From Verrucomicrobiota bacterium (GTDB lineage Bacteria > Verrucomicrobiota > Verrucomicrobiia > Limisphaerales > CANJSG01): DNA of 32,753 nt. Position 1 is the first letter of the stretch; every line of letters begins with the position of its first letter. A model generated the notes under the pieces. The model saw only the letters and a list, made by a program, of their open reading frames with translations, was not told the origin of the DNA and ran no database searches. Where the stretch lies: NCBI GenBank assembly GCA_038209745.1, contig JBBQXJ010000054.1, positions 1 through 32,753 on the forward strand, in the 5' to 3' direction. The position numbers and the translations under genes are program-made. Of the stretch, positions 13,606-32,753 are shown piece after piece.

Positions 13606-14912
13606 GGGCGGGTCGTGCCGTTCACGGGTTTAGGATCCTCGACCTTGATCTTTTTTTCGTCTTCCAGCTCGCGGTTGATCGCCTTGAAACTGCCGGAAAC
13701 GACAGACTGTCCCTCGGTCACGCCTTCGGTGATCTCGGTATAGTTGTCGTCGCTGATGCCGCGCTTCACCGGTCGCATCTTGGCGACGCTGTTCTCGTCG
13801 ATGAAGACCACTTCGATCGGCTTGCGGGAGGGATCGTTCTTCCGCTTCTCCTCCAGCTCCTTCTCGCGGGGATCCTGAGGCTCCATCGCGGCCAGCGGGT
13901 TCTTCTTCGGTTCTTCCATGCCTTTGGGCAGGCGGGTCGTGACGCTCTGGATCGGCACCGTCAGGACGTTCGTCCGGTAGCGGGTCTCGATCAGCGCGGT
14001 CACGGACATTCCGGGCCGCAACTGGTCCTCCTTGTCCTTGATCAGGATCTTCACCTCGAACCGGATCGCCTCCTGGGAAGACGCCATTCCCGCGCTCTTG
14101 GCCGCGTTGGCGATTTCATAGACTTCGCCGGTGAACTTGCGGCCACGGAAGGCGTCCACCTCCAGCTTGGCTGTTTGGCCTTTTCCAATGAGAACGACGT
14201 CCATCTCGCCGATGTCCACCCGCGCCTCCATCGCGTTCAAGTCCGCGATGGTCATGATCTCCGTGCCGGCCATCATCGCGGTGCCGACGACGCGTTCACC
14301 CTTCTGGGATTTCAGCTTGGTCACCGTGCCCCCGATCGGCGCGACGATCGACGTCTTCAGCAGGTCCTCCTCGGCCCGGGTCACGGAGGCCCGCGCCATT
14401 TCGGTCTGTTGCAGCGCGGCGAGGAGCTGGCTCGACGCGACCTCGAACGACGTCTGGTAGTCCTGGAAGACGGAGTCGGAAACCAGCTTCTGGTCGTGGA
14501 GCTCACGGTTGCGGTCCATCTCCGCCTTGGCCTTGTCCAGGTTCGCCCGCGCGACGGCGATGGACGCCTCGGACGACTTGAGGCTGGCGACGGAGGAATT
14601 GCGGCTGGCCACGTAGTTGTCCGGACGGATCTTGAGCAGAAGCTCGCCCTTCTTCACCAATTGGCCCTCGATCACCGGCAGATCGATGATCTCGCCGCTG
14701 ACCTCGGGATTGATCACCACTTGCAGGACCGGCTGCACCTTGCCCGTGGCGACGACGATCTCGGTCAGGCTGCGGCGGCCCACCTTCTCGGCCTGGACGG
14801 CCAGCGCCATATCCCGTGATTTGACATAGCGGAATGCGCCGTAGCCCGCGCCGCCAAGCACGAGAACCACCAGCACGATAAGCCAACTGTAGGAACGTTT
14901 CGACTTGGCCAT
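13602..14912 (-). CDS. Efflux periplasmic adaptor subunit (MacA/HlyD family)
   Basis: N-terminal TM, lipoyl-like halves ([30 protein letters not shown]), helical hairpin and LRPGMSV. Confidence 0.95.
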
Positions 14913-15147
14913 GAAAGGGGACGTTCACGGTTCAAGGCAAACGTGCCAACTCCAAAAAGCCCGGTCCTTTCGAAAGACCCGCTCCCACCGTCGCACGCCG
15001 CCCTCCCCACGGAACGGAGCCGTCGCCACGAACGACACCACTGCGGATGTCGCCGCCGAAAATGGGAAAACCGGGTGTGGACGGTGATCGCCTTCGTCCG
15101 GTTCTTCTCCGCTAGGAAGCGAATGGTATCCACCCCCGATTCAATGG

Positions 15148-15249
15148 CCGCCACAGTCCCCGCACCGGGTGCTTGCGGTTGTCGCGAGCCATGGAGTAGG
15201 AATGCCTCTGTCGTGGGTTGGTGCCACTGGACGTTGCCACGCGTTTCAC
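15148..15249 (-). pseudogene. N-terminal 34-codon remnant of a tyrosine integrase related to 25270-26454
   Basis: VKRVATSSGTNPRQRHSYSMARDNRKHPVRGLWR versus VKRTETSGDTNSRRRHSYSKVLDNRKHPVRGLWR; homology ends abruptly and a stop follows at 15112-15114. Confidence 0.9.
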
Positions 15250-15329
15250 AAGGAAACGCTGTAGAAAAATGGGAAGCACCAACAACGGAGGACTGAAGAC
15301 GGCTATGTAAGTCCTTAGCGATCAGGGTT

Positions 15330-15368
15330 GCGCGAGTGGCGAAATGGCAGACGCGCCAGACTTAGGAT
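15330..15368 (+). repeat. attL: orphan 5' half of tRNA-Leu, a 39-bp perfect direct repeat of 26535-26573
   Basis: GCGCGAGTGGCGAAATGGCAGACGCGCCAGACTTAGGAT is identical in both places; identity stops 1 nt after the anticodon loop. Confidence 0.95.
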
Positions 15369-15491
15369 TCCATTTTTCGCGATTTCAAGAGGCTTCCATC
15401 CGTTGCTGAGACTTCAAGAGAATGCCCGTTTTTATTGGTCAAAATCAACTTCAAGCCCAGCCGTCGGCCCTTCCGGTGTTCGATGGCAAAG

Positions 15492-15511
15492 TGTAGCAAA
15501 AAGTGTAGCAC
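15492..15511 (+). promoter_or_regulatory. Putative integrase arm-type binding site, left end (tandem TGTAGCA)
   Basis: TGTAGCAAAAAGTGTAGCAC, identical to 26465-26484; 12-bp internal period. Confidence 0.75.
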
Positions 15512-15670
15512 GGACTGACGCGGGTTCTCGCTCCCTCTTCAGCCCGCCAGTGATGCCTTCCGGCGGACCCGCGCGCTCACGCGCTCTCCATGTAGGGACA
15601 AATCGGAGCAGGAACCGGCTGCGCGCCCCTGTGGCACCCGCGCTTCACACTTGAAACGTCGCACCAACAA

Positions 15671-16234
15671 TCAAACTGTCGCGCCGCTGCCAGTGGGGCT
15701 GAATTCTCCAGTCGCCTCCTTGTGACAAGGAAAAGGGCCGATGCTTGCGCGTTCGGTCCACCACTTCTTGGCCTTTGGAGCTTCTTCGCCTCGCTTCGCC
15801 GCATTTTTGTTCCGAAGCCCCAAAAGCCGGGCCTCGATCTCAGCCAGATGATTCAGGGCAGCCGCTTGCGAGCGGATCGTGTCGGGCGAAGGGCTCTCTT
15901 CTGAATTGATTCGCCGTTCAAGACTCGCTCGGATTAGGTCCACGAACCGAGCCGTCTCGCGGAAATGCAGCTCCTGTCGGTCCTTCAGCCATCGCTCTGA
16001 AATCGCTCCGCCTTCAACTGCGGGCGGCATCTGAGGAACCGGTGGCGGTCCAGGCAGCAGCCGCTCCAGCTCACGCTTGGCGTATTCTTGACGAAGCCTG
16101 CTCCAACTCTCAGTTCCGGCACGGCGCTCGACGGTTCCTCGATTGATCCCGTGACGGAGAGCGAGAGCGCAAAGGCTGCCTTTCCCGGTTACATAGTCAG
16201 ATCGGCACAAGGCCCACTTTTCCAGCGGTATCAT
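15671..16234 (-). CDS. HTH protein resembling phage terminase small subunit N-termini
   Basis: W...R.DYVTGKGSL..LA.RHGI...TV.RR...E.W pattern followed by helical segments; start set at ATG 16234. Confidence 0.55.
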   Translation of the reverse strand: MIPLEKWALCRSDYVTGKGSLCALALRHGINRGTVERRAGTESWSRLRQEYAKRELERLLPGPPPVPQMPPAVEGGAISERWLKDRQELHFRETARFVDLIRASLERRINSEESPSPDTIRSQAAALNHLAEIEARLLGLRNKNAAKRGEEAPKAKKWWTERASIGPFPCHKEATGEFSPTGSGATV

Positions 16235-16247
16235 ACAACAATAATGC

Positions 16248-16611
16248 CGCATCGATGCGACAAGCCAAACCAACACTCGTCTTCAGGGATGAATCGGGTT
16301 GCTCGCTCCCTATCCAATACGGTTCCAGCTCTCTATTCGTTCGGTCCCGTCTCGACCGAATCGGATGCGACACCGGTGTCGCCCGAGGCCGTTCCGGTTC
16401 CAGCTCTGTAGCCTTCTGGACAGGCCCTGCTCGAACTCCGTTCCGTTCCGGTTCCGAGCTGGTCCCGTCCAGTTCATTCCTGTTCCCATTCTGTGTCTGT
16501 CTCGGGTTCAAGGCAGGGTAAACCACAGCGCCACACTCACGGCTCGGCGGCTTTCACTTGTCGGGCCGGTTGTTGCCCGATGGGCGGCAGCTCTCAAGAG
16601 CGCCGCTTTTT
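16248..16611. other. Palindrome- and repeat-rich non-coding region, candidate replication origin
   Basis: Palindromes CGCATCGATGCG (16248-16259) and GCGACACCGGTGTCGC (16367-16382). Direct repeats CGGTTCCAGCTCT (16320, 16395) and CCGTTCCGGTTCC (16389, 16443). Hairpin plus T-run at 16584-16611. Adjacent to rep. Confidence 0.45.
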
Positions 16612-17109
16612 CGCAAGTGCCGAAAGGGCGTCTCTCCTCATGCGGTCCTGTTTGCGGATCACCATCCGCACGGACCGAGAGAGCGTCACCTGATCCACCG
16701 CGCCGTTGCGTTCCAGCGCATCTACGTCGTCCCGAATGGCGAACTTCGTGATGTAGGCGACTCCTTTCAGCAAGTCGCACACCGGTTGGATCTCTGCGGA
16801 ACCCTTGGTCTGGAGCTTCCATTCACCGTCAAGACGCAGGCAAAGGCTACGGGGGTCGGGAGCCTTGATGCCGCCGACCAAGTAATGGAAGTGCAAGCGA
16901 CCTCCTAAATCGCCGTATTCGCTGCGTAACGCGATCAAGAGACTGGAGTATGGCTGCCCTGTGATTTCGGCGATGCTCCGAAGATGCTGCCAAACCTGCC
17001 GATAGGAATGATTCGGACGGGGATTGGCCCCTTTGAAGGTCACGGCTCCATTGATGTCCCACCGGATTCGCTGCAACGCATACGCCTCCCCTGTAAAGGT
17101 CAGTTTCAC
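16594..17109 (-). CDS. Small HUH-superfamily rolling-circle replication initiator (Rep)
   Basis: Motif I-like AVTF, motif II EYGDLGGRLHFHYLV and motif III GVAYITK, in Rep order. GTG start at 17109 overlaps the upstream TGA (GTGA). Confidence 0.8.
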   Translation of the reverse strand: MKLTFTGEAYALQRIRWDINGAVTFKGANPRPNHSYRQVWQHLRSIAEITGQPYSSLLIALRSEYGDLGGRLHFHYLVGGIKAPDPRSLCLRLDGEWKLQTKGSAEIQPVCDLLKGVAYITKFAIRDDVDALERNGAVDQVTLSRSVRMVIRKQDRMRRDALSALAKKRRS

Positions 17110-17411
17110 GTTCCTTGCCCTCCGGCTCCGGGCGCTAAGGGCACCTTCACAATCTTCCCCCGGAGAATCGGCAATTCCCCTCCCATCAGGATGCCCGTCA
17201 CGGCGATGATGACAGTTTTGTCCTTCAGGGTTCCCCAACGTGCGTGAGCGTCTTCCTCGTCCAGCAACAGTTTGCAGACTCCTTGGATGGCGTGCTCTGC
17301 GGGTCGGCTCATGTCGGCCACCAAGAGCGAAGATTCCTTCCTTGCGGGCTGCGTCCTGCTGCGCGGCCAGTGGTGGAACTCCTCCACCATTACATGGAAA
17401 GCGCCGGTCAT
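17106..17411 (-). CDS. Small hypothetical protein (101 aa), possibly ssDNA-binding
   Basis: Translationally coupled on both sides (ATGA and GTGA overlaps); beta-strand-like pattern; function guessed from position only. Confidence 0.7.
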   Translation of the reverse strand: MTGAFHVMVEEFHHWPRSRTQPARKESSLLVADMSRPAEHAIQGVCKLLLDEEDAHARWGTLKDKTVIIAVTGILMGGELPILRGKIVKVPLAPGAGGQGT

Positions 17412-17698
17412 CGCTGCTCCTCCTCCGCCGCGCCCCTGGCTCTGCGTTCCTGAGTCGATTTCAGCGCCGCGCCGGCTGGTTCCTTCGCCAGCTCACCACG
17501 CAATGCTCGCGCGTCGAACTCCGCCAGCGAGCGCATATCGACAAAACAGCGCCCGGCGATGTTTACCAGGCGGATGTCGCCACGTTTTCCCATCCGCCAA
17601 AGCGTCGTGTCGGAGATGCCTCGATCTCGGCAAACAGCCGACGCGGTGCGGAGTTTGGTTTGTGGATGAGCAGAGAGACGCTCTTCTACGGGTTTCAT
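17408..17698 (-). CDS. Excisionase/AlpA-like winged-HTH DNA-binding protein
   Basis: LRTASAVCRDRGISDTTLWRMGKRGDIRLVNIAGRCFVD pattern. Confidence 0.8.
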   Translation of the reverse strand: MKPVEERLSAHPQTKLRTASAVCRDRGISDTTLWRMGKRGDIRLVNIAGRCFVDMRSLAEFDARALRGELAKEPAGAALKSTQERRARGAAEEEQR

Positions 17699-17728
17699 TT
17701 GGTGACATCCTACGACGGCACACAATTC

Positions 17729-17750
17729 CGTTCAGCGGAGCCGCTGAACG
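17729..17750. promoter_or_regulatory. Perfect 10-bp inverted repeat upstream of the xis-orf-rep unit (candidate operator)
   Basis: CGTTCAGCGG-AG-CCGCTGAACG in a 53-bp intergenic gap. Confidence 0.55.
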
Positions 17751-17751
17751 A

Positions 17752-18840
17752 TCACCCTTCTGCAAACATACGGCTCAACGCCTTGGACGCCTTCCCGGAG
17801 GCGACCAAGAGGGCGCTTTCTGAGCTGTATAGGGGCTTTCCTTCGTCCGGATAATCAACCGCCTCGATCAAAGAATGAGCCTCTTGGAGAGTATGTAGTT
17901 TTGTGAGTCTCAACGCTCCGAGCTGGCGAAGATGCTCTTGGGCACTGGCCACATTCTGCACCTTCAGCTCGGGGCCGGGTCTCTGCCGTTTGAGCCACCC
18001 GGAAAACTCCTTTTTGATCGTTTTGTCGGAGCGTCCCCAATTGACAATGAACTTCACCTCTTGATGGACAATCCCGTCCACCCACACACGTTCAAAGTTC
18101 TGGTCCCACTGCGCCCCCGCTGGCAGAGCCCCCCACCCTCCTTTGGCCTCAACGATGCCGGGCGTAAAAATATGCCCCGCAGCACTGGCGCGGACCATTT
18201 CCTCGACCTCGGCATCGCTCATTGGGCACGAATGTGCTTGGATGTACTTCTGGCGCGAAATCTCTACGGAATACTCGCGGCCAAGGGTCCAAATCCATTG
18301 CGCCAGCCGTTCGCGCGCCTCGAAGGCGTGAAACATGAAGAGGTCGAAGGCATTTTTCCGCACCCCCTCCGACTCGATTTCGAGCCACGGCTTCTCCGGG
18401 AACGGAGGAAAGACATGGAGGAACCATTTCCCGCTTCGTGCGTCCATTTCGGGAAAGGCTCCGCCGGCCTCTACCCGCAATTGCATCCATTCGGTCAATG
18501 AGTTGTCTGTTCCTTGGGTTCCGTCACCTCCGTCAGCGAAAACTTTCGCTTTGGTTCGCCAACTGCCGTCCCGAAGCGAACCGATGAACTCCCTGACACT
18601 GTCTTTGCAAGATGCGGCTGTTTTCAGGAGCGCCCTGGCCGCTTGCATGATCCTCGGATTCTTCTCCCGCCAAGCCTCCACTTTTTCACGGAACGCCTTC
18701 GACTCCCGCCCGAACTCATAGAGCAGGCAGGTCTCCAATTCGTCTTCGGGCACGCGGTCAAAGCGCCATTCAGGATCGGCGATGACAGCGGCAGCGGGCC
18801 TCAATTCCCGCCTCCCGGACTTTCTTTTTCCTCGCTTCAT
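17752..18840 (-). CDS. Hypothetical protein (362 aa), possible element regulator
   Basis: Long ORF; ATG 18840 overlaps the Mrr gene stop (ATGA); no recognised catalytic motif. Confidence 0.75.
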   Translation of the reverse strand: MKRGKRKSGRRELRPAAAVIADPEWRFDRVPEDELETCLLYEFGRESKAFREKVEAWREKNPRIMQAARALLKTAASCKDSVREFIGSLRDGSWRTKAKVFADGGDGTQGTDNSLTEWMQLRVEAGGAFPEMDARSGKWFLHVFPPFPEKPWLEIESEGVRKNAFDLFMFHAFEARERLAQWIWTLGREYSVEISRQKYIQAHSCPMSDAEVEEMVRASAAGHIFTPGIVEAKGGWGALPAGAQWDQNFERVWVDGIVHQEVKFIVNWGRSDKTIKKEFSGWLKRQRPGPELKVQNVASAQEHLRQLGALRLTKLHTLQEAHSLIEAVDYPDEGKPLYSSESALLVASGKASKALSRMFAEG

Positions 18841-19718
18841 AGTGGCAGCGTGAACCGGCAACGGGGATACGCGGAACAACCCCAGAACCGTTCTCCGACG
18901 TTTAGTCCTTTGCCTGCGGTTCTCAGCACCATGCGGGCTTCGCACTTGGGGCAGCGTTTCTCGGGATTGTTGAGATGGGTTTGAAGCTCCCCGTCATAGT
19001 CGAGGTCCAAGCTCGCCAGCAGAGAGAGGAGTTCCTTCTCGTCGAACAGCGTGACGCCGTTCCGTCCGGCCAATTCTTTCGCCTCTTGGGTGAAGCCGTT
19101 CAGCGTGACGAGCATTCCCGCGCCGACGCCATTGTCCTTCAATGCCCCGACGAATTCCCGCACCTGCCGCACGCCCACGTCCTGCCTTCGCCAGTGTTTG
19201 CATTGCACGGCCACGCGGTTGCCGCCCTTCTCCAGCATCAGGTCGATTCCTCCGTCAGGATGGGCTCCGCCCTTCCTCTCCACCGCATGGCCTTGCCGTC
19301 GAAAAACGTGCTGCATCAGCTTCTCGAACTGATACCAGTCCAAGGCCCGCAGCTTCTCTCGCCAGCGAGCTACGGTTGTCCCGCCTGTCTGCCCGTATCG
19401 GCCCAAGTCCCTCTGTGCGGGTTCTGGCAGAGTGGACCCTTCCCCCATGACGTTTCCCGAGCGAGGAGTCGGTCGGAGTGGCGCGAGGGAAGCAGAGTTG
19501 ATCGTTGCTTGCCTTCGGCGGGACCGGAACCACCAGACCGACAGGAGAACCACGAAGCCCAAACCCATGAGACCGAGCGTCACCACCACCAAGATCGAAA
19601 AGATCGAGTTCAACCGCTCGGCCAAGCCGCTGGTTCCCCCGGCCAAGGCAGCCAAGAGCGCGACTCCGGCAATCGCCTTGGCCGTGTCCTCCGCGTTGTT
19701 CCTTCGTCGTCTCTCCAT
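18837..19718 (-). CDS. Membrane-anchored Mrr-family restriction endonuclease with C-terminal topoisomerase-type C4 zinc ribbon
   Basis: N-terminal hydrophobic helices; LDWYQFEKL..., DGGIDL...AVQCKHW, VGVRQVREF, GFTQEA; CPKC...FWGCSAYPRC. Confidence 0.92.
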   Translation of the reverse strand: MERRRRNNAEDTAKAIAGVALLAALAGGTSGLAERLNSIFSILVVVTLGLMGLGFVVLLSVWWFRSRRRQATINSASLAPLRPTPRSGNVMGEGSTLPEPAQRDLGRYGQTGGTTVARWREKLRALDWYQFEKLMQHVFRRQGHAVERKGGAHPDGGIDLMLEKGGNRVAVQCKHWRRQDVGVRQVREFVGALKDNGVGAGMLVTLNGFTQEAKELAGRNGVTLFDEKELLSLLASLDLDYDGELQTHLNNPEKRCPKCEARMVLRTAGKGLNVGERFWGCSAYPRCRFTLPL

Positions 19719-19920
19719 GATCGCAGGCGGGGGAAACATCCCCAACCCGTCGTTTCATCGGCCGAAGGCCAATGGTATTTAGCGCGGATCGAAACACCCT
19801 TGGGCGGCTGGTTTGAGGCAGCCGAATCGGCTCAAGCAGGAATTCAGAAGCTCCGACCCATAATTGGCCACGCTGCTTGTGTGAAACAAACAAGGGGAAG
19901 GCCCACAAAAGACCAAGCAC

Positions 19921-20508
19921 ATGGACTCCTACTCAATGACCGTTCTGGTTGCCTTGTTCATAGGGCTGATGGTGGTGGTTGTGCAGCTCGACCGACTGCG
20001 CCGTGACAGGGCACACCAACACGAACAGACCCAAGGTCTTTTCCAGTCTTTCGTCCAAGCAGTGCAGGGAGCGCAATCGAGGAGCGAGGCGGTTTTACAG
20101 GAGAACGTGCTTCGCGTGGTTGCCTGCGTTGAAAGCCTTGGGAAACAGCTTTCCGAGAAGATCGAAACGGCGTCCCAAGAAACTCAGCGGATTGACCAAT
20201 CCATTGGGCAAAGCCAATTGGAACGAACGGAGTGGATGACCAACCGACTCCGCGAGGCACTTGGATCGGGCTTCAAATTAACCAGTGAAAGCTCCGAATC
20301 CCTTGGGAGCCTGCTCTCCGAAAAAATTGGGAAGGAAGCCGAATACATTCAACGGAGCCAGTCCGCGTTGGAGGCGCAGGGAGGAAAGATCATCAAGGCC
20401 ATCCACGAATCGGGCGAGCAAGTCACGGATGAACTCAAGGAAGGCACCAAAGCCATCGTTGATCTCAAAGCGAGCTTGGAAGAGTCCGTCAATTTTGAGC
20501 GGAGGTAG
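19921..20508 (+). CDS. Single-TM coiled-coil protein, first gene of the helicase operon
   Basis: N-terminal VLVALFIGLMVVVV followed by Q/E/S-rich helical heptads; 3-bp gap to the next ATG. Confidence 0.8.
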   Translation: MDSYSMTVLVALFIGLMVVVVQLDRLRRDRAHQHEQTQGLFQSFVQAVQGAQSRSEAVLQENVLRVVACVESLGKQLSEKIETASQETQRIDQSIGQSQLERTEWMTNRLREALGSGFKLTSESSESLGSLLSEKIGKEAEYIQRSQSALEAQGGKIIKAIHESGEQVTDELKEGTKAIVDLKASLEESVNFERR

Positions 20509-20511
20509 CAA

Positions 20512-21306
20512 ATGGCCGGAGTCTCCATTGTCTCCTATCTGCGTTATCTCCACGATGTAAACCGCAAGCTGCTCCAGCATGGCGGCCTTGAAAGCGTCCT
20601 CTACCGGAAACCGGCCAGCAAGAATCCCTGTTACCTCCAATTGGACCATCCTGATCCGGCCCGCCCACGGCACTTGCTTGCGACCTTGCGGCATATCGAG
20701 AACGCCGAAGCCAAAGGCTCCTTCTGGCGGCCATTGGTCGGGTTCGGTCTGATCGTCGGCCAGCTCGACACGCCCAAAGGCATCCGTCGCCTCTCCGCCC
20801 CATTGGCTTTTTGCGGTGCCAGTCTCGCGGAGGAGGAGGATCGGCCTTCCTCCGTCCAGATGATCCCGCAGTGGGATTCCATCACCCTCAACTACGACCT
20901 GTTGGCTTTTTTCCTGAAACAGGAAGCGGACGAGGAAGACACCAACGGAAGTTTGCTGCCCAAAGTCGGGCTCGACGCGAACACGCTTCGCGTTTTTACC
21001 GAAGCCGAAGAGGAGCTGGAACGTCACGCCTCCTCCGCGAATCCAGACCACCGTCTCACCCATGATGCTTTGTCGCAGACGATGAAATACATCCGCGACG
21101 GCGTGCCCGAGCTGCGCTCAATTGCTGTGCGCGGCGATCCCTATGACCATCGCCGTTTGGACAAGGAACTGGCCGAACTGACGCCACCGGTGTTCTTCGC
21201 GCATCGGTTCTTTTTCCTCGCGCCCTCGGCGGGCGAGCTGACCACGATGTCGGGACTCGCCACCCTGATCCGAAAGACTGAGAAGCCCAAGCCGAATGGA
21301 CTTTGA
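20512..21306 (+). CDS. Hypothetical protein, resembling the N-terminal (DUF4011-like) region of large SF1 helicases
   Basis: LVGFGLIVG...LSAPLAF...ITLNYDLL pattern; 11-bp overlap with the helicase start. Confidence 0.75.
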   Translation: MAGVSIVSYLRYLHDVNRKLLQHGGLESVLYRKPASKNPCYLQLDHPDPARPRHLLATLRHIENAEAKGSFWRPLVGFGLIVGQLDTPKGIRRLSAPLAFCGASLAEEEDRPSSVQMIPQWDSITLNYDLLAFFLKQEADEEDTNGSLLPKVGLDANTLRVFTEAEEELERHASSANPDHRLTHDALSQTMKYIRDGVPELRSIAVRGDPYDHRRLDKELAELTPPVFFAHRFFFLAPSAGELTTMSGLATLIRKTEKPKPNGL

Positions 21307-23923
21307 GAATTCACTGTTGGCGAAATTGTTCGAGGGCGTTCTGGAAGGGCGCTCCGTAGAATTCAAAACCGACCTCTTGCCGGTCGCAGAGGTCCAGAAG
21401 GCCATCGCGCTTCTGCCTATCAGCCTTTCGTCCAAACAAAAGCAGGCCGTCTCCCGCGCTTGGACTCACGAGGTTTCCTACATCCAAGGACCGCCTGGAA
21501 CCGGAAAATCGCACACGATCACGGCCATCATGTTGGCGGCGCTCTTCCTGAAAAAACGGGTGCTACTCGTCTCGCACAAAAAGCCCGCCATCGACGTGGT
21601 TTTCGACCGGCTCAAGGAATGTCTCGGCGAAGGCAGCGTCATCTACGCCTCCAACGACGTTGCCCAACGTCAGGCGATGCGCGGAACGCTGCAAAGCTGG
21701 CTGGATCGCGGGGACAATCTTCAATCATATGCGGAGCTGGATGCACTGCGCCGCGTTCGCAGCGAATACCGTGGGAAGGTGGAGCAGCTCAAGGCGGAGG
21801 TGGAAAAACTGGAAGGGTCGATCCGCAGCGCCCTACAGAGGGAACGGGACTTCTTTCACAGGCAGGAGCGGTTTCACAAAAACAGGACCGCGTATCTCAC
21901 CCGTTTTGAAACGCTTGGGGGCGATCTCAATCTTTCTTTGTCGGCCGATGTCGATCTAGCGAACGCGCTCCTTCCCGAGATCGAGCTTCAACTGGGCGAC
22001 GAACTGCACGCCAACGATGGCCGCATGAGCCGCAGTGAAACTCTGCGTCTCCGTCGCTTTTTCGTTGGCTTTGCCCGCCATTTTTTTGCCGATCACAAAC
22101 GGCTTGAACCTGGACTTGCGGCGACAAACTACGTCCGTGAACACCTCGACCTGACCTGTGAATTCCAGAGCGCCAGTGTCGCCCGTTCTCAAGTAAACCC
22201 GGACTTTCTCAGGGCAACACGAACCACCCTCGCGAAAAAGCAGCACCAACTGGAAGTGCAGCGTGCGGCCTTGGCCAAGGCGCACTTTGAGGCACATGTT
22301 GTGGGTAAGCTCCGCGAAACGGCTGATGATGTGCGGAAATTCGCCGGCATGATTCGCCACGCGAACCCTGCACTGATCGCGGAGAAGATGGAGGCCATCC
22401 TTTTCCCCAAAGTCATCGAGACACTGCCCCTATGGGTCGGGCAAATGCGCCACCTCGGCGAGTTTCTTCCGTTCGACGAGGATCTCTTCGATCTCATCAT
22501 CGTGGACGAGGCGTCCCAGGTGAACATCGCCGAAATCATCCCCGCGTTTTATCGGGGAAAACGCATCTGTGTCGTCGGTGACGACAAACAGCTCGGCCTG
22601 AACGCGGCGGGAGTGAACTTCGGATTCGGAGGGCAGTTCGAGGAACTCATCTGGCACAAACACTTCAATGGTTCCGGGGCGCTGTATTCACAGGCGGGCG
22701 AGCATTCGTTGTTGGTCAGCAAGCATTCGATCCTCGATTTTATCTGCTCAATGGACGACGGAAAGGTTCCAAAGACCACGCTTGACGAGCATTTCCGCAG
22801 CTTTCCGCAGCTCGCCTCCTTCACCAGTGAAGCGTTCTACAAAGCGGACGGCGGGCTTCGCCTGATGAAGGAAGTGCCGAAGAACCTGTCTTTGGAGTGC
22901 TTCAATTCGGTGGAAGTGGGCGGGGTCCGTGACGAGAAAACCAAGACGGTCGCCAACGAAATCGAGGAACTGTTGCGCTGGCTCACCAAGCTGATCCGTG
23001 GTCGGCACTATGAGCACGACCCGGCCTTGCGGGCGCATGGGTTCACCCACGAGCACCCGCCAACGCTCGGTGTGATCTCGTTCCTCACCAAACAGCGCGA
23101 CGCCATCCGGGAACGGGTTGAAGAGGTCTTTTCACCCGACGAAATCAGGAACAGCCATCTGATGATCGGCACGCCGGAAGATTTCCAAGGCAACGAACGG
23201 GACATCATCTTCATCACGCTGGGCCTGGACGGAACGAGCCGCTGGGGGAAAGGCCACTACGAGAACCCGAACCGGTTCAACGTCGCCACGAGCCGGGCCA
23301 TCCATTACACGCTGCTGATCTACGGCGGCATTCCGGCAAATGCCCGGCTCATCAAGTCCTACCTCGGCCATTTCGGCAAATCATGGCGAAGCAGAACTCC
23401 AGAGGAAGTGGCGAACGCCGCTTCGGCCAACGGGACGCCCCGGATCGGCGGCTATCGCTGGGATTGGAACCGGAAACTTCACCGGGAACTGTGCGAGTCC
23501 GAATTCGAGCACCGCGTCGCGGACGTGCTCGAACGGTTCGTGGAAGACCATGCGGGAAAGGCCAAGCTCCGCCTGTTCAACCAAGTGCAGGCCAGCCGCG
23601 CCTTGGGCGTCTCCAGTTGCGGGCAGAAGCGGCTCGATTTCGTCGTGCTGAACGAGGGCAACGGCGTTTCCGTGGCCGTCGAGGTGGACGGCCGGGACCA
23701 TTTCACCGAGGATGGACGTTCCTACTCCGAAGCCCATTTGGAGCGCGTGGACGTGCTCCGTCGGGCCGGATGGCGCATCATCCATATCCCCTACTATCTC
23801 TGGTGGCGGGATGGCTGGCTGGACGACACGGCCGACCCGGAGTTTTCGCGGGCGGTGTCAGAATTGTTCAGCGACTTGCGGGAAGCCTTGGAACTCCCGA
23901 GGAAAGGGCGCAATGGCTCCTGA
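21296..23923 (+). CDS. Upf1/DNA2-like SF1 helicase with coiled-coil insert and C-terminal Vsr/DUF559/MTES_1575-like endonuclease
   Basis: Helicase motifs IQGPPGTGKS, LLVSHKKPAID, IIVDEASQ, VVGDDKQL, LDEHFRS, TPEDFQGNERD and RFNVATSRA; nuclease motifs ESEFE..., RLDFVV, AVEVDG...H and LRRAGWRIIHI. Confidence 0.93.
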   Translation: MDFENSLLAKLFEGVLEGRSVEFKTDLLPVAEVQKAIALLPISLSSKQKQAVSRAWTHEVSYIQGPPGTGKSHTITAIMLAALFLKKRVLLVSHKKPAIDVVFDRLKECLGEGSVIYASNDVAQRQAMRGTLQSWLDRGDNLQSYAELDALRRVRSEYRGKVEQLKAEVEKLEGSIRSALQRERDFFHRQERFHKNRTAYLTRFETLGGDLNLSLSADVDLANALLPEIELQLGDELHANDGRMSRSETLRLRRFFVGFARHFFADHKRLEPGLAATNYVREHLDLTCEFQSASVARSQVNPDFLRATRTTLAKKQHQLEVQRAALAKAHFEAHVVGKLRETADDVRKFAGMIRHANPALIAEKMEAILFPKVIETLPLWVGQMRHLGEFLPFDEDLFDLIIVDEASQVNIAEIIPAFYRGKRICVVGDDKQLGLNAAGVNFGFGGQFEELIWHKHFNGSGALYSQAGEHSLLVSKHSILDFICSMDDGKVPKTTLDEHFRSFPQLASFTSEAFYKADGGLRLMKEVPKNLSLECFNSVEVGGVRDEKTKTVANEIEELLRWLTKLIRGRHYEHDPALRAHGFTHEHPPTLGVISFLTKQRDAIRERVEEVFSPDEIRNSHLMIGTPEDFQGNERDIIFITLGLDGTSRWGKGHYENPNRFNVATSRAIHYTLLIYGGIPANARLIKSYLGHFGKSWRSRTPEEVANAASANGTPRIGGYRWDWNRKLHRELCESEFEHRVADVLERFVEDHAGKAKLRLFNQVQASRALGVSSCGQKRLDFVVLNEGNGVSVAVEVDGRDHFTEDGRSYSEAHLERVDVLRRAGWRIIHIPYYLWWRDGWLDDTADPEFSRAVSELFSDLREALELPRKGRNGS

Positions 23924-24326
23924 AACGCTCAGGATTGTCCTTCTGGATGACGGGCCGGACCTGCTCGAACTTTACGAGGCCGTTATCCGAACCTATCCAT
24001 TTCCGACGCATCTCCAATTGTTCACGAACGGTCTTGAAGCATTGGAGGCGATGACACAAAAGCCTCCGCATCTACTCGTGATGGATTGGAATCGGGAATT
24101 CGACAACGGCGACATCATGCTGAAAGTCCTGGCGAAGCGGGGACTGACGTTTCCGGTGCTGGTTGCCTCCGGGTGGGCAACGGATGAACTCGTGCGCCAA
24201 AGCGTTGCCCCGTCTCAGACAGTCGCCCGGCTTCAAAAGCCCTTCGTATGCCAGGACTTCCTCGCCACCGTGGTCAGCCTGTTGTTCCAAGATCGGATCG
24301 CGAAACCGTTGATGCCGTCGGCTTGA
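23913..24326 (+). CDS. Single-domain response regulator (CheY-like receiver)
   Basis: IVLLDD, LLVMD (phospho-acceptor), VLVASG and LQKPF all intact; 11-bp overlap with the helicase stop. Confidence 0.88.
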   Translation: MAPETLRIVLLDDGPDLLELYEAVIRTYPFPTHLQLFTNGLEALEAMTQKPPHLLVMDWNREFDNGDIMLKVLAKRGLTFPVLVASGWATDELVRQSVAPSQTVARLQKPFVCQDFLATVVSLLFQDRIAKPLMPSA

Positions 24327-24462
24327 GCTTGGATTTGTCGCGAAGACATGCCGCTCACTGCAATCCCGAGTGGGTGGGTTTTTCTTGGCGCACATCGGTT
24401 TTCGCATGTATCTCTCTTTGGCGTCTGACTGGTTTTGCCGATCAAATGCCGGACAACAAACC

Positions 24463-24642
24463 ATGCCCTCAAAACGCCCCAAAATAGAATATCCGGCCGA
24501 GACCAAAGGGAGCCGGATCGCCGCCAAACTTCGGAAGGAAGCAAGCAAGCTGACGGCCGAAGAGCGGAAGTCCTATTTCGAGGAGGCGATGCAGATGATC
24601 TACGGGGGCACCAATGGCACGGTCCAAATCCGCAAGCCTTGA
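24463..24642 (+). CDS. Putative type II antitoxin (59 aa)
   Basis: Small charged ORF (MPSKRPKIEYPAETKGS...) directly upstream of and overlapping a PIN gene. Confidence 0.7.
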   Translation: MPSKRPKIEYPAETKGSRIAAKLRKEASKLTAEERKSYFEEAMQMIYGGTNGTVQIRKP

Positions 24643-25105
24643 CGTAAACGTCCTCTACGACTTGGCGTCGGAAGAGAAGTTCGCAAACGCATTTCTCAAC
24701 GAACTCCGCTTTCATGGGTGGATTTGCCGCGTTTCCCCCACGGCGATCCAAGAGATGTTTTTCCATCACAAGAGGAAAACGCCTCCGCAGTTTGCCTTGG
24801 CCGAAAAGACGCTTCGGAATCTCCAAGCGTGGAAGATTGGCCCTTTCGATCTGGTGCCGGTCGGTCATGGCATCACAGAACAGTTCGTTCGCAAGCTGAT
24901 CTACAAAGGCTTCTTGCCAGAAGACGAGGAAAACGACGGCTACATTCTGGCCGAAACGGCCTTGGTGGACATCCCGGTCCTTATCACTTCGGACAGCCAT
25001 CTGCTGAATATCCCACGCAAGAGCCTGTCTGCGGAGCTGGATGCATCCGACCTCCCCGACGTTCAAGTTTTCCGTCCTGACCAGTTCCTCAAAGTCATAG
25101 GCTAA
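24614..25105 (+). CDS. PIN-domain (VapC-like) ribonuclease toxin
   Basis: LDVNVL, VSPTAIQE, NDGYILAE and LITSDSHLL provide the acidic tetrad. Confidence 0.88.
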   Translation: MARSKSASLDVNVLYDLASEEKFANAFLNELRFHGWICRVSPTAIQEMFFHHKRKTPPQFALAEKTLRNLQAWKIGPFDLVPVGHGITEQFVRKLIYKGFLPEDEENDGYILAETALVDIPVLITSDSHLLNIPRKSLSAELDASDLPDVQVFRPDQFLKVIG

Positions 25106-25269
25106 TGGAAAAGACAAGCGTCAGCGACATAACAGGTTCTCTCTAAAAAATGGGTCCCATCCTCCGCCTGGTCTTTCGGGTTTCCCCCTCCCCCCCACCA
25201 CTCCGGCCGGACGGGTCCGAACCCAGGCACCGGACCCATGCCGGTTCCGTCCGCAGGGAAAAAACGGAT

Positions 25270-26454
25270 TCACCCTGCAACGGCGGAAGGAAACGGAACC
25301 ACCGTCGGGCCGAAGTTGAGCCGGGCGGCTTGGGCTTGGGCGTGTTCGTTGCTTAGATGGCCATAGACCTTGCCGATCAACACGCCGCCGTCCTTGTGGC
25401 CCACCCAGCGGGCAATGGTCATGTAGTCAATCCCGCTCATCACCGCGAACGAGATGAAGTGATGACGGCAGTCGTGGAAGCCGAAGCCGTCCAGCTTCGC
25501 CGCCGTCCGCGCCAGCTTCATGGATTCCCGGAAGGTGTGGGCGGCTTGGTCCTTCTCCCCCCGTTGCGGACTGGGAAAGAGCCATTCGGAGTCCGGCGCG
25601 CGTCGGGCGTGCATGTCGCGCAAGTGCGCCTGCAAAGGCGGGCTCAAATCGACGTGCCGCGCCTCCCGGTTCTTCGTGTCGCCGTCCGCGCCGATGGTCA
25701 CGAGTCGCCCGTTGAAATCGACGTCCGCCCAACCCACGCGCAAGGCTTCCTGCTCCCGTGCCCCGGACAGGGAGAGAAACCGGAGGTAGTCCGCCAGTTG
25801 CCGCCCGTTCTTGGACGCTTCCAGACCGGCCGCGCAGATGCGTTCGATTTCCGCCAAGGTGAAAAGCCGCCGGGATTTCTTCTCCACCCGCTGCCAAGCA
25901 ACGTCCTCGGTCGGAAGCGTCTTCAAATACCCGTCCCGCTTCGCCGCCTTGAGGACGTGGCGGAGACAAACAAGGGCGAGGTTGCATGTCCTGGGCGAGC
26001 GTCGGGCGCGAAGGGTGTTCAGAGCGCCCAGAACATGGCTCGGCTTAATCTTGTCGAGCCGCAGATGCCCCAAGGCGACGCGCCAGCGTTCGTAATGGGT
26101 CTTCTCGGTGACGAGGGTGTCCCGCTTCTTCCCCGTGCCCGCCAGCAAGGGCAAATACGTATCCGTCAGGTATTCGTCGAACGTCGGGGAGCGCCCGACA
26201 TGCCGCAGACGGTTCTCGTCCCGCTCGATGAGCAGCTTCCGAAGCTCCGTTTGGCCTTCAGAGGCGGTTGTCGCGGCCAGAGGCACCCAAGACAACTTCT
26301 TGCGCCCCGCTTCATCCTCGACCGTCACGCGGGCGTAGAACGAGCCATTGCGCCTCCAGAGCCCGCGAACCGGGTGCTTGCGGTTGTCGAGAACCTTGGA
26401 GTAGGAATGCCTCCGCCGTGAGTTGGTGTCACCGGACGTTTCAGTGCGTTTCAC
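25270..26454 (-). CDS. Tyrosine recombinase / integrase
   Basis: Catalytic set SGAR(R), TKN(K), HDCR(HxxR), VGH(H), KVY(Y). GTG start at 26454 is conserved in the remnant copy. Confidence 0.96.
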   Translation of the reverse strand: MKRTETSGDTNSRRRHSYSKVLDNRKHPVRGLWRRNGSFYARVTVEDEAGRKKLSWVPLAATTASEGQTELRKLLIERDENRLRHVGRSPTFDEYLTDTYLPLLAGTGKKRDTLVTEKTHYERWRVALGHLRLDKIKPSHVLGALNTLRARRSPRTCNLALVCLRHVLKAAKRDGYLKTLPTEDVAWQRVEKKSRRLFTLAEIERICAAGLEASKNGRQLADYLRFLSLSGAREQEALRVGWADVDFNGRLVTIGADGDTKNREARHVDLSPPLQAHLRDMHARRAPDSEWLFPSPQRGEKDQAAHTFRESMKLARTAAKLDGFGFHDCRHHFISFAVMSGIDYMTIARWVGHKDGGVLIGKVYGHLSNEHAQAQAARLNFGPTVVPFPSAVAG

Positions 26455-26464
26455 AAGGCAACAC

Positions 26465-26484
26465 TGTAGCAAAAAGTGTAGCAC
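26465..26484 (+). promoter_or_regulatory. Putative integrase arm-type binding site, right end, just upstream of the int start
   Basis: Identical to 15492-15511. Confidence 0.75.
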
Positions 26485-26534
26485 CGACAACGGAGGACTG
26501 AAAACGGCTATGTAAGTCCTTAGCAATCAGGGTT

Positions 26535-26618
26535 GCGCGAGTGGCGAAATGGCAGACGCGCCAGACTTAGGATCTGGTTCCGCAAGGAGTGGAGGTTCAA
26601 GTCCTCTCTCGCGCACCA
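26535..26618 (+). tRNA. tRNA-Leu (anticodon TAG) with encoded CCA; its 5' 39 bp form attR
   Basis: Acceptor stem GCGCGAG/CTCGCGC, anticodon arm CCAGA-CTTAGGA-TCTGG, long variable arm, T arm GGAGG-TTCAAGT-CCTCT, ACCA end. Confidence 0.98.
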
Positions 26619-26726
26619 ACCCTTCCAAGAATGGAAACCCCGGGGAAGCAGCACGGGGTCCGATTCCTGGACCCCTTCATCAAATTGTCACTCGGCTTTC
26701 CCGGATTCCACGGCAGTCTTTTTCCC

Positions 26727-28292
26727 GTGAACCCGTCGCCCGTTTCCCGTCGCCGATTCGGCAAGCTCCTCCTTGGTTCGGCTGCCGCAGGGTGGGCGAC
26801 GGGGTGTTGGTCGCCGCCGAATCCGGGGCCGGCTGTCGTGGTCGCGGAGCCGGCGCGACCCAAGATGCCCAGCGGTGTGATGTCCGGCGATGTGACCCTG
26901 GGCGGCGCGGTGCTCTGGAGCCGGTGTGATCGACCGGCGCGCATGATCGTCGAAGCGGCGACGACCGAATCGTTCCGCAACTCCCGGCGCTATCGGGGCC
27001 CGATCGCCGCTCCGGAGCACGACTTCATCGCCAAGTTCCCGCTGCCTGCCCTTCCTCCCGGAGAACGGGTCTTCTACCGGGTGCGGTTCGAGGATCTCTC
27101 CGATCCACGCCTCGTCTCCGAGTCGGTGACGGGCAGCTTCCGCACGGCATCGGTTCAACGCCGCGACGTCCGCTTCGTCTGGTCGGGCGACACCGTGGGC
27201 CAAGGCTGGGGCATCGATGCTTCGCGCGGCGGCATGACGATCTATGAATCGATCCGCCGGATGCAGCCGGACTTTTTCGTCCACAGCGGCGACACGATCT
27301 ACGCGGATGTTCCACTGAAGGCGGAGGTTCCCCTGCCCGACGGCTCCGTCTGGCGCAACCTGGTCACCCCGGCCAAATCGAAGGTCGCCGAGTCGGTCGA
27401 GGAGTTTCGCGGCAATCAACTCTACAACCTCGAGGATACGAACTTCCGCCGGCTCTGCGCCGAGGTGCCGCTCTTCGCCCAATGGGACGACCACGAGGTC
27501 CTGAACAACTGGTATCCGGGCGAGATCCTCGAGAACGCGGCCTACCGCGAAAAGAACGTCAGCGTGCTCGCCGGCCGATCCCGGCAGGCGTTTTTCGACT
27601 GCCTGCCCATCCGCGGCCAAAGCACGGACACGATCTACCGCACCATCGGCCACGGTCCGGAACTGGAGCTCTTCTTCTTGGACATGCGGACCTATCGCGG
27701 GCCCAACTCCACCAATCGCCAGGCCACCCCGGGACCGGAGACCGCCTACCTGGGAGCCAAACAACTGGAGCAGCTCAAGCGCCGGCTCAAGGCCTCCAAG
27801 GCGACGTGGAAAGTAATGTGCAGCGACATGCCGCTCGGACTCATCGTCGGGGACACCGGCGGCACGTTCGAGAACAGCTCGAATGGCAACGGCCCCGCCC
27901 TCGGCCGCGAACTGGAGATCGCGGATCTGCTCCGCTTCATGAAGCGCGAGCGCATCCGGAACGTGGTCTGGATCACCGCGGACGTTCACTACGCCGCGTC
28001 CCATTTCTACAATCCGGACAAGGCGCAGTTTCAGGACTTCGATCCGTTTTGGGAGTTCGTCAGCGGTCCGCTCCACGCCGGCACCTTCGGCCCCAACTCC
28101 CTCGACAACACCTTCGGCCCCGAGGTGCGGTTCACCAGCCTGCCGAAAAACCACCAAGGAGGGATGGGGCCGGCGGCCGGGCTCCAGTTCTTCGGGGTGG
28201 TGGATCTGAACGGAGAGACGAACGAACTCACGGTCAGCCACTACAACGCGGCCGGCGCCAAGCTCTGGTCGATCACGCTGCCGCCGGTGTGA
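26727..28292 (+). CDS. phoD: Alkaline phosphatase D family protein, Tat-exported (possible lipoprotein)
   Basis: SRRRFGK twin-arginine motif, HSGDTIYAD, QWDDHEV.NNW, LDMRTYR and TADVHY motifs; start set at GTG 26727. Confidence 0.94.
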   Translation: MNPSPVSRRRFGKLLLGSAAAGWATGCWSPPNPGPAVVVAEPARPKMPSGVMSGDVTLGGAVLWSRCDRPARMIVEAATTESFRNSRRYRGPIAAPEHDFIAKFPLPALPPGERVFYRVRFEDLSDPRLVSESVTGSFRTASVQRRDVRFVWSGDTVGQGWGIDASRGGMTIYESIRRMQPDFFVHSGDTIYADVPLKAEVPLPDGSVWRNLVTPAKSKVAESVEEFRGNQLYNLEDTNFRRLCAEVPLFAQWDDHEVLNNWYPGEILENAAYREKNVSVLAGRSRQAFFDCLPIRGQSTDTIYRTIGHGPELELFFLDMRTYRGPNSTNRQATPGPETAYLGAKQLEQLKRRLKASKATWKVMCSDMPLGLIVGDTGGTFENSSNGNGPALGRELEIADLLRFMKRERIRNVVWITADVHYAASHFYNPDKAQFQDFDPFWEFVSGPLHAGTFGPNSLDNTFGPEVRFTSLPKNHQGGMGPAAGLQFFGVVDLNGETNELTVSHYNAAGAKLWSITLPPV

Positions 28293-31842: not shown

Positions 31843-32152
31843 GGTAGGGCGACGGCTCCGGCCGAGCCGCCTGGCGGCGAACTCCTTTCTTGAATGCGAT
31901 TCTGGCAACTCCGGAGCGTCCCGCTGTCGCCAGAGCGGCGGTCCCGACGGCAGAAGGCGCAACGGCGGCTTGGCGGGAGCCAGCGCCCGACCATCGGCTT
32001 GGCTTCGCCGTCGCCGCGACGATCATTCTCGTGAGGTCGGATGAATGAAAGACGGGCGGCGGTGGCGTTTTTGGAGCATTCCGGAGTGGCCAGAGGAGCG
32101 GTTCCGTCGGCAGCGGATCAAACTGCGGCTTGGCCGGAGCCGTCGCCCGACC
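31843..32152. repeat. Cluster of three 28-bp GTAG-type REP units
   Basis: GGTAGGGCGACGGCTCCGGCCGAGCCGC at 31843-31870; inverted copies at 31965-31992 and 32125-32152 (the latter 26/28). Confidence 0.88.
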
Positions 32153-32156
32153 TTTT

Positions 32157-32555
32157 GCTCCGGTTAAAGCGAACAACGCCCCGGTTAAAGCGAACAATGC
32201 CTCGGTTAAAGCGAACAACGCCCCGGTTAAAGCGAACAACGCCCCAGTTAAAGCGAACAACGCCCCAGTTAAAGCGAACAATGCCCCGGTTAAAGCGAAC
32301 ATTGCTCCGGTTAAAGCGAACAACGCTCCAGTTAAAGCGAACAACGCCCCGGTTAAAGCGAACAACGCTCCGGTTAAAGTGAACAATGCCCCGGTTAAAG
32401 TGAACAATGCTCCAGTTAAAGTGAACAATGCTCCAGTTAAAGTGAACAATGCTCCAGTTAAAGCGAACAACGCTCCAGTTAAAGCGAACAACGCTACAGT
32501 TAAAGCGAACAACGCTCCAATTAAAGCGAACAACGCCCCGGTTAAAGCAAACAAG
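32157..32555. repeat. 21-bp tandem repeat x19 (GCYCCRGTTAAAGYGAACAAY)
   Basis: Directly visible, head-to-tail with no spacers; coding status unknown. Confidence 0.97.
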
Positions 32556-32753
32556 GCTCCGTTTCATGCGATGACTGGAGCAATTCACGCGGCGTTTCTT
32601 GCCGGGTGGGCTAAATTTGCCGGGGAGTTTGTGACCGGCTGCACAACCGATGTGCTTATCATCAGCGAGTTACGGTGGTGGCACGCTTCAAGTAGTGGTG
32701 GGGGGCAATAGCCCGTGCGTCGTTCTCTGATGGAGTTGTTCTTGGTCGGGGAG

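Follow-up and report, generated by a model that had tools for sequence, protein, structure and literature searches.

Integrative elements that enter their target gene in reversed orientation were reportedly described by Zhao and Williams in 2002 (J Bacteriol 184:859). The present analysis concerns a candidate of this kind, an 11.2-kb element at the tRNA-Leu(TAG) gene of a Verrucomicrobiota bacterium. It lies in a stretch of 32,753 nucleotides (contig JBBQXJ010000054.1, assembly GCA_038209745.1), called the window below, with positions counted from its first letter. The host genome is a soil or sediment Verrucomicrobiota, represented by a metagenome bin of 140 contigs that is 92% complete. P4-type integrases are tyrosine integrases that lie beside tRNA-Leu with a short att region and the usual orientation.

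The 5'-distal form of recombination is called 'considerably less frequent' in a passage of PMC6563490 that cites Zhao and Williams 2002. In Islander (PMC4383910) a 5' fragment is recorded for 159 islands and a 3' fragment for 3760, so that the 5' class makes up about 4% of a total of 3919. For the pTN3-like integrases of Thermococcales, PMC8371274 gives a tRNA 5' half as attB, which in pTN3 belongs to tRNA-Leu, and attributes expression of the restored tRNA to the region of the integrase promoter. Panis et al. 2010 (PMC2951348) report negative autoregulation of int genes that have their promoter overlapping the att region, one divergent (OD) pair among them. In the same account the tested OD and STI integrases were negatively autoregulated, and SIT and OD int-tRNA pairs together made up less than 8% of 1273.

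The interval 15369-26573 is read here as an integrative element with its own tyrosine integrase, inserted in reversed orientation into the single tRNA-Leu(TAG) gene, with a probability of roughly 85%. The features that define it are the following.

26535-26618, plus strand: intact tRNA-Leu(TAG), called by ARAGORN, the sole tRNA of the window.
15330-15368, plus strand: displaced 5' fragment of tRNA-Leu(TAG), nt 1-39, the attL core, an exact match to 26535-26573.
15369-26534, no strand: element-specific DNA of 11,166 bp (repeat spacing 11,205 bp), delimited by the repeat coordinates and by a Logan contig in sequencing run X1.
25270-26454, minus strand: tyrosine integrase (Int) of 394 amino acids with a GTG start, matching PF00589 (E 3.5e-17) and the phrog_1 integrase (E 7.2e-52).

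The displaced fragment lies on the same strand as the tRNA, 11.2 kb upstream of it, and the integrase gene is inside the interval. The two copies part after 26573 and 15368, one base into the 3' strand of the anticodon stem. The anticodon loop CTTAGGA occupies 26566-26572 (15361-15367 in the left copy), and 26566-26572 is presumed to be the overlap region for strand exchange. No further copy of tRNA nt 1-39 was found elsewhere in the window with up to 5 substitutions allowed. The assembly has no tRNA-Leu(TAG) gene besides that at 26535-26618, in which nt 1-39 would be element-derived and nt 40-84 host-derived.

The initial annotation had described the displaced piece as the 5' 39 nt of the tRNA, ending just past the anticodon loop, and the exact match at 15330-15368 bears this out. 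It had also placed the intact tRNA downstream of the element, with int at the tRNA 5' end and divergent from it across an 80-bp spacer; the coordinates agree (open reading frame start 26454, tRNA start 26535). The duplication was correctly seen as an exact 39-nt tRNA piece, but it is not limited to it. The full repeat measures 222 nt (15147-15368 against 26352-26573) at 88% identity. Its exact part is 41 nt only (15328-15368), and in the 181 nt upstream of this the copies differ throughout, without a mosaic pattern.

The PF00589 match covers amino acids 202-372 of the integrase and scores 63.1 bits (cutoff 27.1). The translation contains AREQE, HDCRHHF and KVYGHL in that order, which may correspond to the catalytic Arg, His-x-x-Arg and Tyr motifs in their expected order.

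The locus has the anatomy of a reversed-orientation island, with a 5' fragment upstream, an integrase inside and a boundary at the anticodon loop (class A). The likeness to the Islander '5' tDNA fragment' class extends to the intact tRNA, the displaced 5' fragment upstream, the integrase inside, the anticodon-centred site and the replaced upstream region. The difference is that here the layout spans a whole Verrucomicrobiota integrase family and four tRNA-Leu isoacceptors. The pTN3-like integrases share the tRNA 5' half as target, and tRNA-Leu in the case of pTN3. As these 'suicidal' integrases are presented in the source, attP lies in the int gene, which is split on integration, whereas here the int open reading frame (ORF) is uninterrupted and the tRNA half is 80 bp outside the gene. 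The pTN3-like hosts are archaeal and the present hosts bacterial, and the two are likened by layout, not by sequence. In the autoregulated integrases like KplE1 IntS, as presented in PMC2951348, the int promoter region overlaps the att region and arm-type sites, as it appears to do here. The classes of that paper concern gene orientation only and not which tRNA half the element supplies. Unlike in the P4-type layout, int in the window and at 48 related loci faces the tRNA 5' end, and the duplicated part is the 5' half.

Short tandem repeats were found at both ends of the element.

26464-26483, plus strand: candidate P arm-type sites CTGTAGCA (26464-26471) and GTGTAGCA (26476-26483), with a 12-nt period, from a repeat search.
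15491-15510, plus strand: candidate P' arm-type sites, GTGTAGCA twice with a 12-nt period, 123-142 nt from the crossover, from a repeat search.

Exact GTGTAGCA occurs three times in the window, always at the element ends, against an expected 0.11. Both ends were available for seven elements (the window, L026, L029, L031, L033, L072 and L074). Six of the seven have a tandem pair ~60-73 nt upstream of the tRNA that is repeated in the same orientation 123-147 nt inside the far end. The paired unit is lineage-specific (GTGTAGCA, GTAGCACA, CTAGCACA, GTGGCACA) and identical within each element. Among 49 homologous int-tRNA spacers, 34 have an exact 7-mer pair at a 12-nt period. Such pairs, which co-vary with the integrase and keep fixed distances from the core, have the look of arm-type sites in an attP of the lambda kind. 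Short sites repeated on each arm, apart from the core, would suit a heterobivalent (lambda-type) integrase.

In the window element and six independent relatives alike, the displaced fragment stops at tRNA nt 38-40. Because this right boundary is constant, and identity starts at tRNA nt 1 against unrelated upstream DNA, the exchange would lie at the edge of the anticodon loop. A crossover in or at the loop, as the initial annotation had proposed, is supported by this comparison. The placement mirrors the usual anticodon-centred sites and draws on what is established for them (review PMC8371274).

In the mechanism proposed, attP would consist in order of the int start, two arm-type sites, a spacer of ~50 bp, tRNA nt 1-38, element DNA and, ~125 bp on, two more arm-type sites. 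Strand exchange, at exact cleavage positions that we infer, would occur within the anticodon loop of 7 nt or at its edge. Integration would leave a working tRNA in which the element's 5' half, with the spacer upstream of it, is joined to the host 3' half. The 5' half in use before, together with the region upstream of it, would be stranded at the far end of the element. In the window this previous upstream region would be the stub of an earlier related element, comprising int codons ~3-37 and the spacer.

Related integrase loci numbered 80, and the 60 closest (L017-L076, ~40-79% identity) were surveyed in detail. Nearly all are in Verrucomicrobiota bins. The initial annotation had suggested looking among integrase homologues for the 5'-half layout, and it is present at most of them: at 48 of the 60 loci int faces the 5' end of an intact tRNA-Leu on the other strand, 34-123 bp from the int start. 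The anticodons at these 48 loci are TAA (27), CAG (9), CAA (7) and TAG (5). The 3' end of an intact tRNA-Leu faces int at three loci (L054, L068 and L069). Four contigs start inside int, and orientation cannot be judged there. An intact tRNA-Leu was not called at the remaining five. By eye one of these is reversed and cut by the contig end (L043), one is reversed with the 5' half only (L036), one is a truncated forward case (L064) and two are without tRNA-Leu. The exact displaced fragment (tRNA nt 1-38, 1-39 or 1-40) was found beyond the integrase at 6 of the 60 loci, in elements of 5.5-10.9 kb. Five whole genomes were searched for a second 5' half of tRNA-Leu(TAA), which was present on another contig in three. 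The reversed layout appears to be the rule for this Verrucomicrobiota integrase family, across four tRNA-Leu isoacceptors. In a quick tree (SH-aLRT) the forward-orientation loci fall in lineages apart from two large reversed clades, and one integrase family thus contains both target orientations.

The sister lineages L054, L068 and L069, together with L061 and L065 (40-46% identity), have the tRNA-Leu 3' end towards int or no tRNA. They carry tandem pairs of their own (e.g. TGTGCCGGT twice), which lie inside the predicted int start or shortly ahead of it. At L064 (9700-9950) a tRNA-Leu(TAG) without an ARAGORN call is broken off at the T loop beside a forward-orientation int, and the tRNA 3' end was apparently not restored. 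Six loci from different species-level genomes (L042-L047) have near-identical integrases (branch lengths 0-0.005) beside tRNA-Leu(TAA). Two genomes of this group have no second tRNA 5' half, and the group may represent fixed remnants or very recent spread. Verrucomicrobiota-type int genes with tRNA-Leu were also seen in bins labelled Bifidobacteriaceae (L021), Baltobacteraceae (L031), Acidiferrales (L034) and Sulfotelmatobacter (L050), which may reflect binning contamination or cross-phylum transfer.

The left copy of the 222-nt repeat includes the entire 80-bp spacer and an integrase stub, a relic that the initial annotation had overlooked.

15147-15258, minus strand: what is left of an older related int gene, its first ~37 codons (tblastn of Int, amino acids 3-37, 74% identity, 15252-15148), part of the 222-nt repeat.
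15259-15329, plus strand: relic spacer with a degenerate pair of arm sites (15260-15283; arm-repeat copy at 75%) and TAAGTC retained, aligned to 26464-26534.

The stub abuts unrelated DNA beside a HlyD/ABC efflux operon. Since the left copy holds both the spacer and codons of an older int, the site was occupied before and has been used at least twice. The displaced 'host' 5' half had then itself come with an earlier related element, now reduced to the stub. Remnants of int were also found at the 5' end of tRNA-Leu(TAG) in two congeners, as an internally deleted gene in G005 (amino acids 2-134 and 366-398) and a stub of amino acids 1-59 in G004. A third congener, G002, has tRNA-Leu(TAG) without an int stub, and its homology to the window starts 2 nt before the tRNA. 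At L036 (1-260) a full int, the upstream spacer and tRNA-Leu(TAA) nt 1-38 are followed by foreign DNA in place of the 3' half. Two reversed elements stand in tandem there, and this live case is the counterpart of the window's relic.

As int lies on the opposite strand, the restored tRNA has to do without the old host promoter. It is the sole tRNA-Leu(TAG) gene in a 92%-complete assembly and so presumably must be expressed. A candidate promoter element was found in the spacer.

26513-26518, plus strand: TAAGTC, candidate -10 box of the tRNA, with its first base 22 nt before the mature 5' end, from spacer comparison and native tRNA genes.

In 26 of the 49 spacers a TAA[CG]T box begins at -23 to -21, and the motif matches at just two other places in 130 nt. 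In the same genome, native tRNA genes have TTGCA or TTGAC, 17-18 nt and a TAAGTT-like box 17-26 nt upstream. The unoccupied tRNA-Leu(TAG) of G002 has CTTGCC, 18 nt and TTAGGA. It is plausible that the spacer of the element supplies the tRNA promoter, in which TAAGTC would drive the tRNA. Towards int, the reverse complement of a GTCAA conserved in 30 of the 49 spacers reads TTGAC. The window has TTGTCG, 16 nt, TACAGT and 8 nt in this direction, then the GTG start. This would be a weak int promoter with a nearly leaderless mRNA and its -10 inside an arm site, the candidate P arm sites overlapping the -10-like TACAGT. By analogy with the autoregulated integrases above, negative autoregulation of int through Int binding at the arm sites is likely. 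The arm sites might further lie between divergent int and tRNA-Leu promoters, with Int occupancy setting both its own level and the expression of the single-copy host tRNA; this extension is quite unlikely.

The cargo of the element includes the following genes.

15671-16276, minus strand: ORF with an N-terminus like a small terminase subunit (phrog_1206, E 5.1e-9, amino acids 21-75); no Pfam match.
16594-17238, minus strand: ORF with a weak, sub-cutoff likeness to replication-associated proteins (PF23343 REP_ORF2-G2P, E 0.0019, 18.9 bits against a cutoff of 27.8).
18837-19745, minus strand: Mrr-type restriction endonuclease with a C-terminal zinc ribbon (PF04471, E 3.5e-30; PF01396, E 2.5e-10; PADLOC PDC-S02, ZorD nuclease domain and mREase_IV).
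21296-23923, plus strand: SF1 helicase (AAA_11/AAA_12) with a C-terminal RAP/MTES_1575 nuclease-like domain (PADLOC PDC-S37, E 2.7e-37; MkoA, E 3e-36).
23712-24326, plus strand: response-regulator receiver domain protein (PF00072, E 4.5e-8), with the true start probably inside the ORF.

The helicase resembles the defence proteins Mokosh MkoA and PDC-S37. Several further ORFs of the element had no match in Pfam, PHROGs or PADLOC. A small ORF at 17408-17725 is a candidate directionality factor for Int. PADLOC and PHROGs detected no complete known defence system and no phage structural module, with no capsid or tail genes. The element looks like a small integrative island with defence-like genes. 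Elsewhere in the window, positions 1 to ~750 and 32073-32676 contain long tandem-repeat arrays of 15-nt and 21-nt units (39-47 and 20 copies). These are probably coding repeats of large ORFs and have no relation to the element.

Several results weigh against the reading of a reversed integrative element whose spacer serves the tRNA. The displaced fragment was absent from the sequence examined at 54 of the 60 loci, and two of the five whole genomes searched had no second tRNA-Leu(TAA) 5' half. This lack of a displaced copy suggests that some integrases of the family may be immobilised remnants. The paired sites are missing from one of the seven elements (L026). Conserved synteny across the site was found in none of six congeners, which gave no clean comparative empty site. 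Among the Logan contigs (k=31) that make up the sequencing-run evidence, none joins 15368 to 26574 or 26573 to 15369; the exact repeat of 41 nt is longer than k-1, so in these contigs the words of the integrated form are the same as those of the circle plus empty site. As for the promoter, the TAA[CG]T box is missing from 23 of the 49 spacers, TAAGTC has no -35-like hexamer at the proper distance, and a sigma-70 consensus scan of 26300-26700 on both strands returned 0 promoters and 0 terminators. The initial annotation had the tRNA transcribed probably from the 80-bp spacer. This is reasonable in view of the sole gene, the recurring box and its native -10 position, though the scan weighs against it. 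The accompanying claim that the element controls expression of a host tRNA goes beyond the evidence.

In run X1, the probable source, a single contig of 11,217 nt equals 15339-26555 at a depth of 18.2, with flanking contigs at 3.5-6.4, contig depth not being copy number. The element depth of ~3-5 times that of the flanking contigs may mean extra copies or other carriers. Run X2 contains the element in pieces with 0 differences at depth 5-7. Its flanks are nearly uncovered, but missing cover was not counted as evidence. Run X4, from another study, was considered as an empty site, with 14300-15193, 15164-15368 (stopping exactly at 15368), 26544-26618 and 26590-27300 covered at 0-7 differences and most bins of the element uncovered; here too the missing cover is no evidence. 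Congener G002 was rejected as a comparative empty site, with the tRNA-PhoD side on contig C35 and the HlyD side on C275, running into other genes. The other five congeners keep neither the tRNA-PhoD nor the HlyD linkage.

The depths in X1 and the identical contigs in X2 would fit an element that is mainly excised, possibly as a multicopy circle, or present in other hosts, the integrated contig being a minority state or the assembler's choice. The words shared by both forms at k=31 and the weak Rep-like match at 16594-17238 also speak for this. However, that match is below the Pfam cutoff, and the contig crosses both junctions, where the flanks differ at 12% of positions in the 222-nt repeat, which is resolvable with longer words or read pairs. 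The integrated layout with exact displaced fragments also occurs in six other assemblies. A mainly excised state is taken as unlikely, and attP on a circle would still carry the tRNA 5' half. The 222 nt of 88% identity that flank the element raise another route of entry, homologous recombination with the pre-existing relic in place of Int exchange in the anticodon loop. It is very improbable: the right boundary at nt 39 matches that of the six relatives (nt 38-40), which have no relic and unrelated upstream DNA, the differences between the copies form no mosaic, and ~180 nt at 88% identity is a poor substrate.

A chimeric contig joined at shared tRNA sequence could arise in a 140-contig metagenome bin, and many organisms of the sample have tRNA sequence in common (depth 112-295 over 26452-26885, with many loose ends). 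Such an artefact is hardly credible given that int and the tRNA are adjacent at 48 of the 60 homologue loci in other assemblies, that the arm-type pairs agree between the two element ends, and that the independent X1 contig equals the element from repeat to repeat. Reversed integration of an 11.2-kb element into the tRNA-Leu(TAG) gene is preferred to all three.

The initial annotation had rated the novelty of the locus too high, since the reversed geometry is already documented. Literature searches found no paper on this Verrucomicrobiota tRNA-Leu integrase family, and as far as they reach the clade-wide pattern is new. For specialists the single case is ordinary, and the added value lies in a natural series within one integrase family: 48 loci at the tRNA-Leu 5' half with four anticodons, lineage-specific arm pairs at fixed distances, and forward sister lineages. 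The series could help to explain what determines the target orientation of tyrosine integrases, and by what means a tRNA promoter can be replaced by a mobile element without harm to the host. Island finders that assume 3' fragments will overlook most elements of this family in Verrucomicrobiota. If Int occupancy did set the expression of the tRNA, an essential decoding function would be tied to the recombination machinery of the element, and successive elements would overwrite the tRNA promoter.

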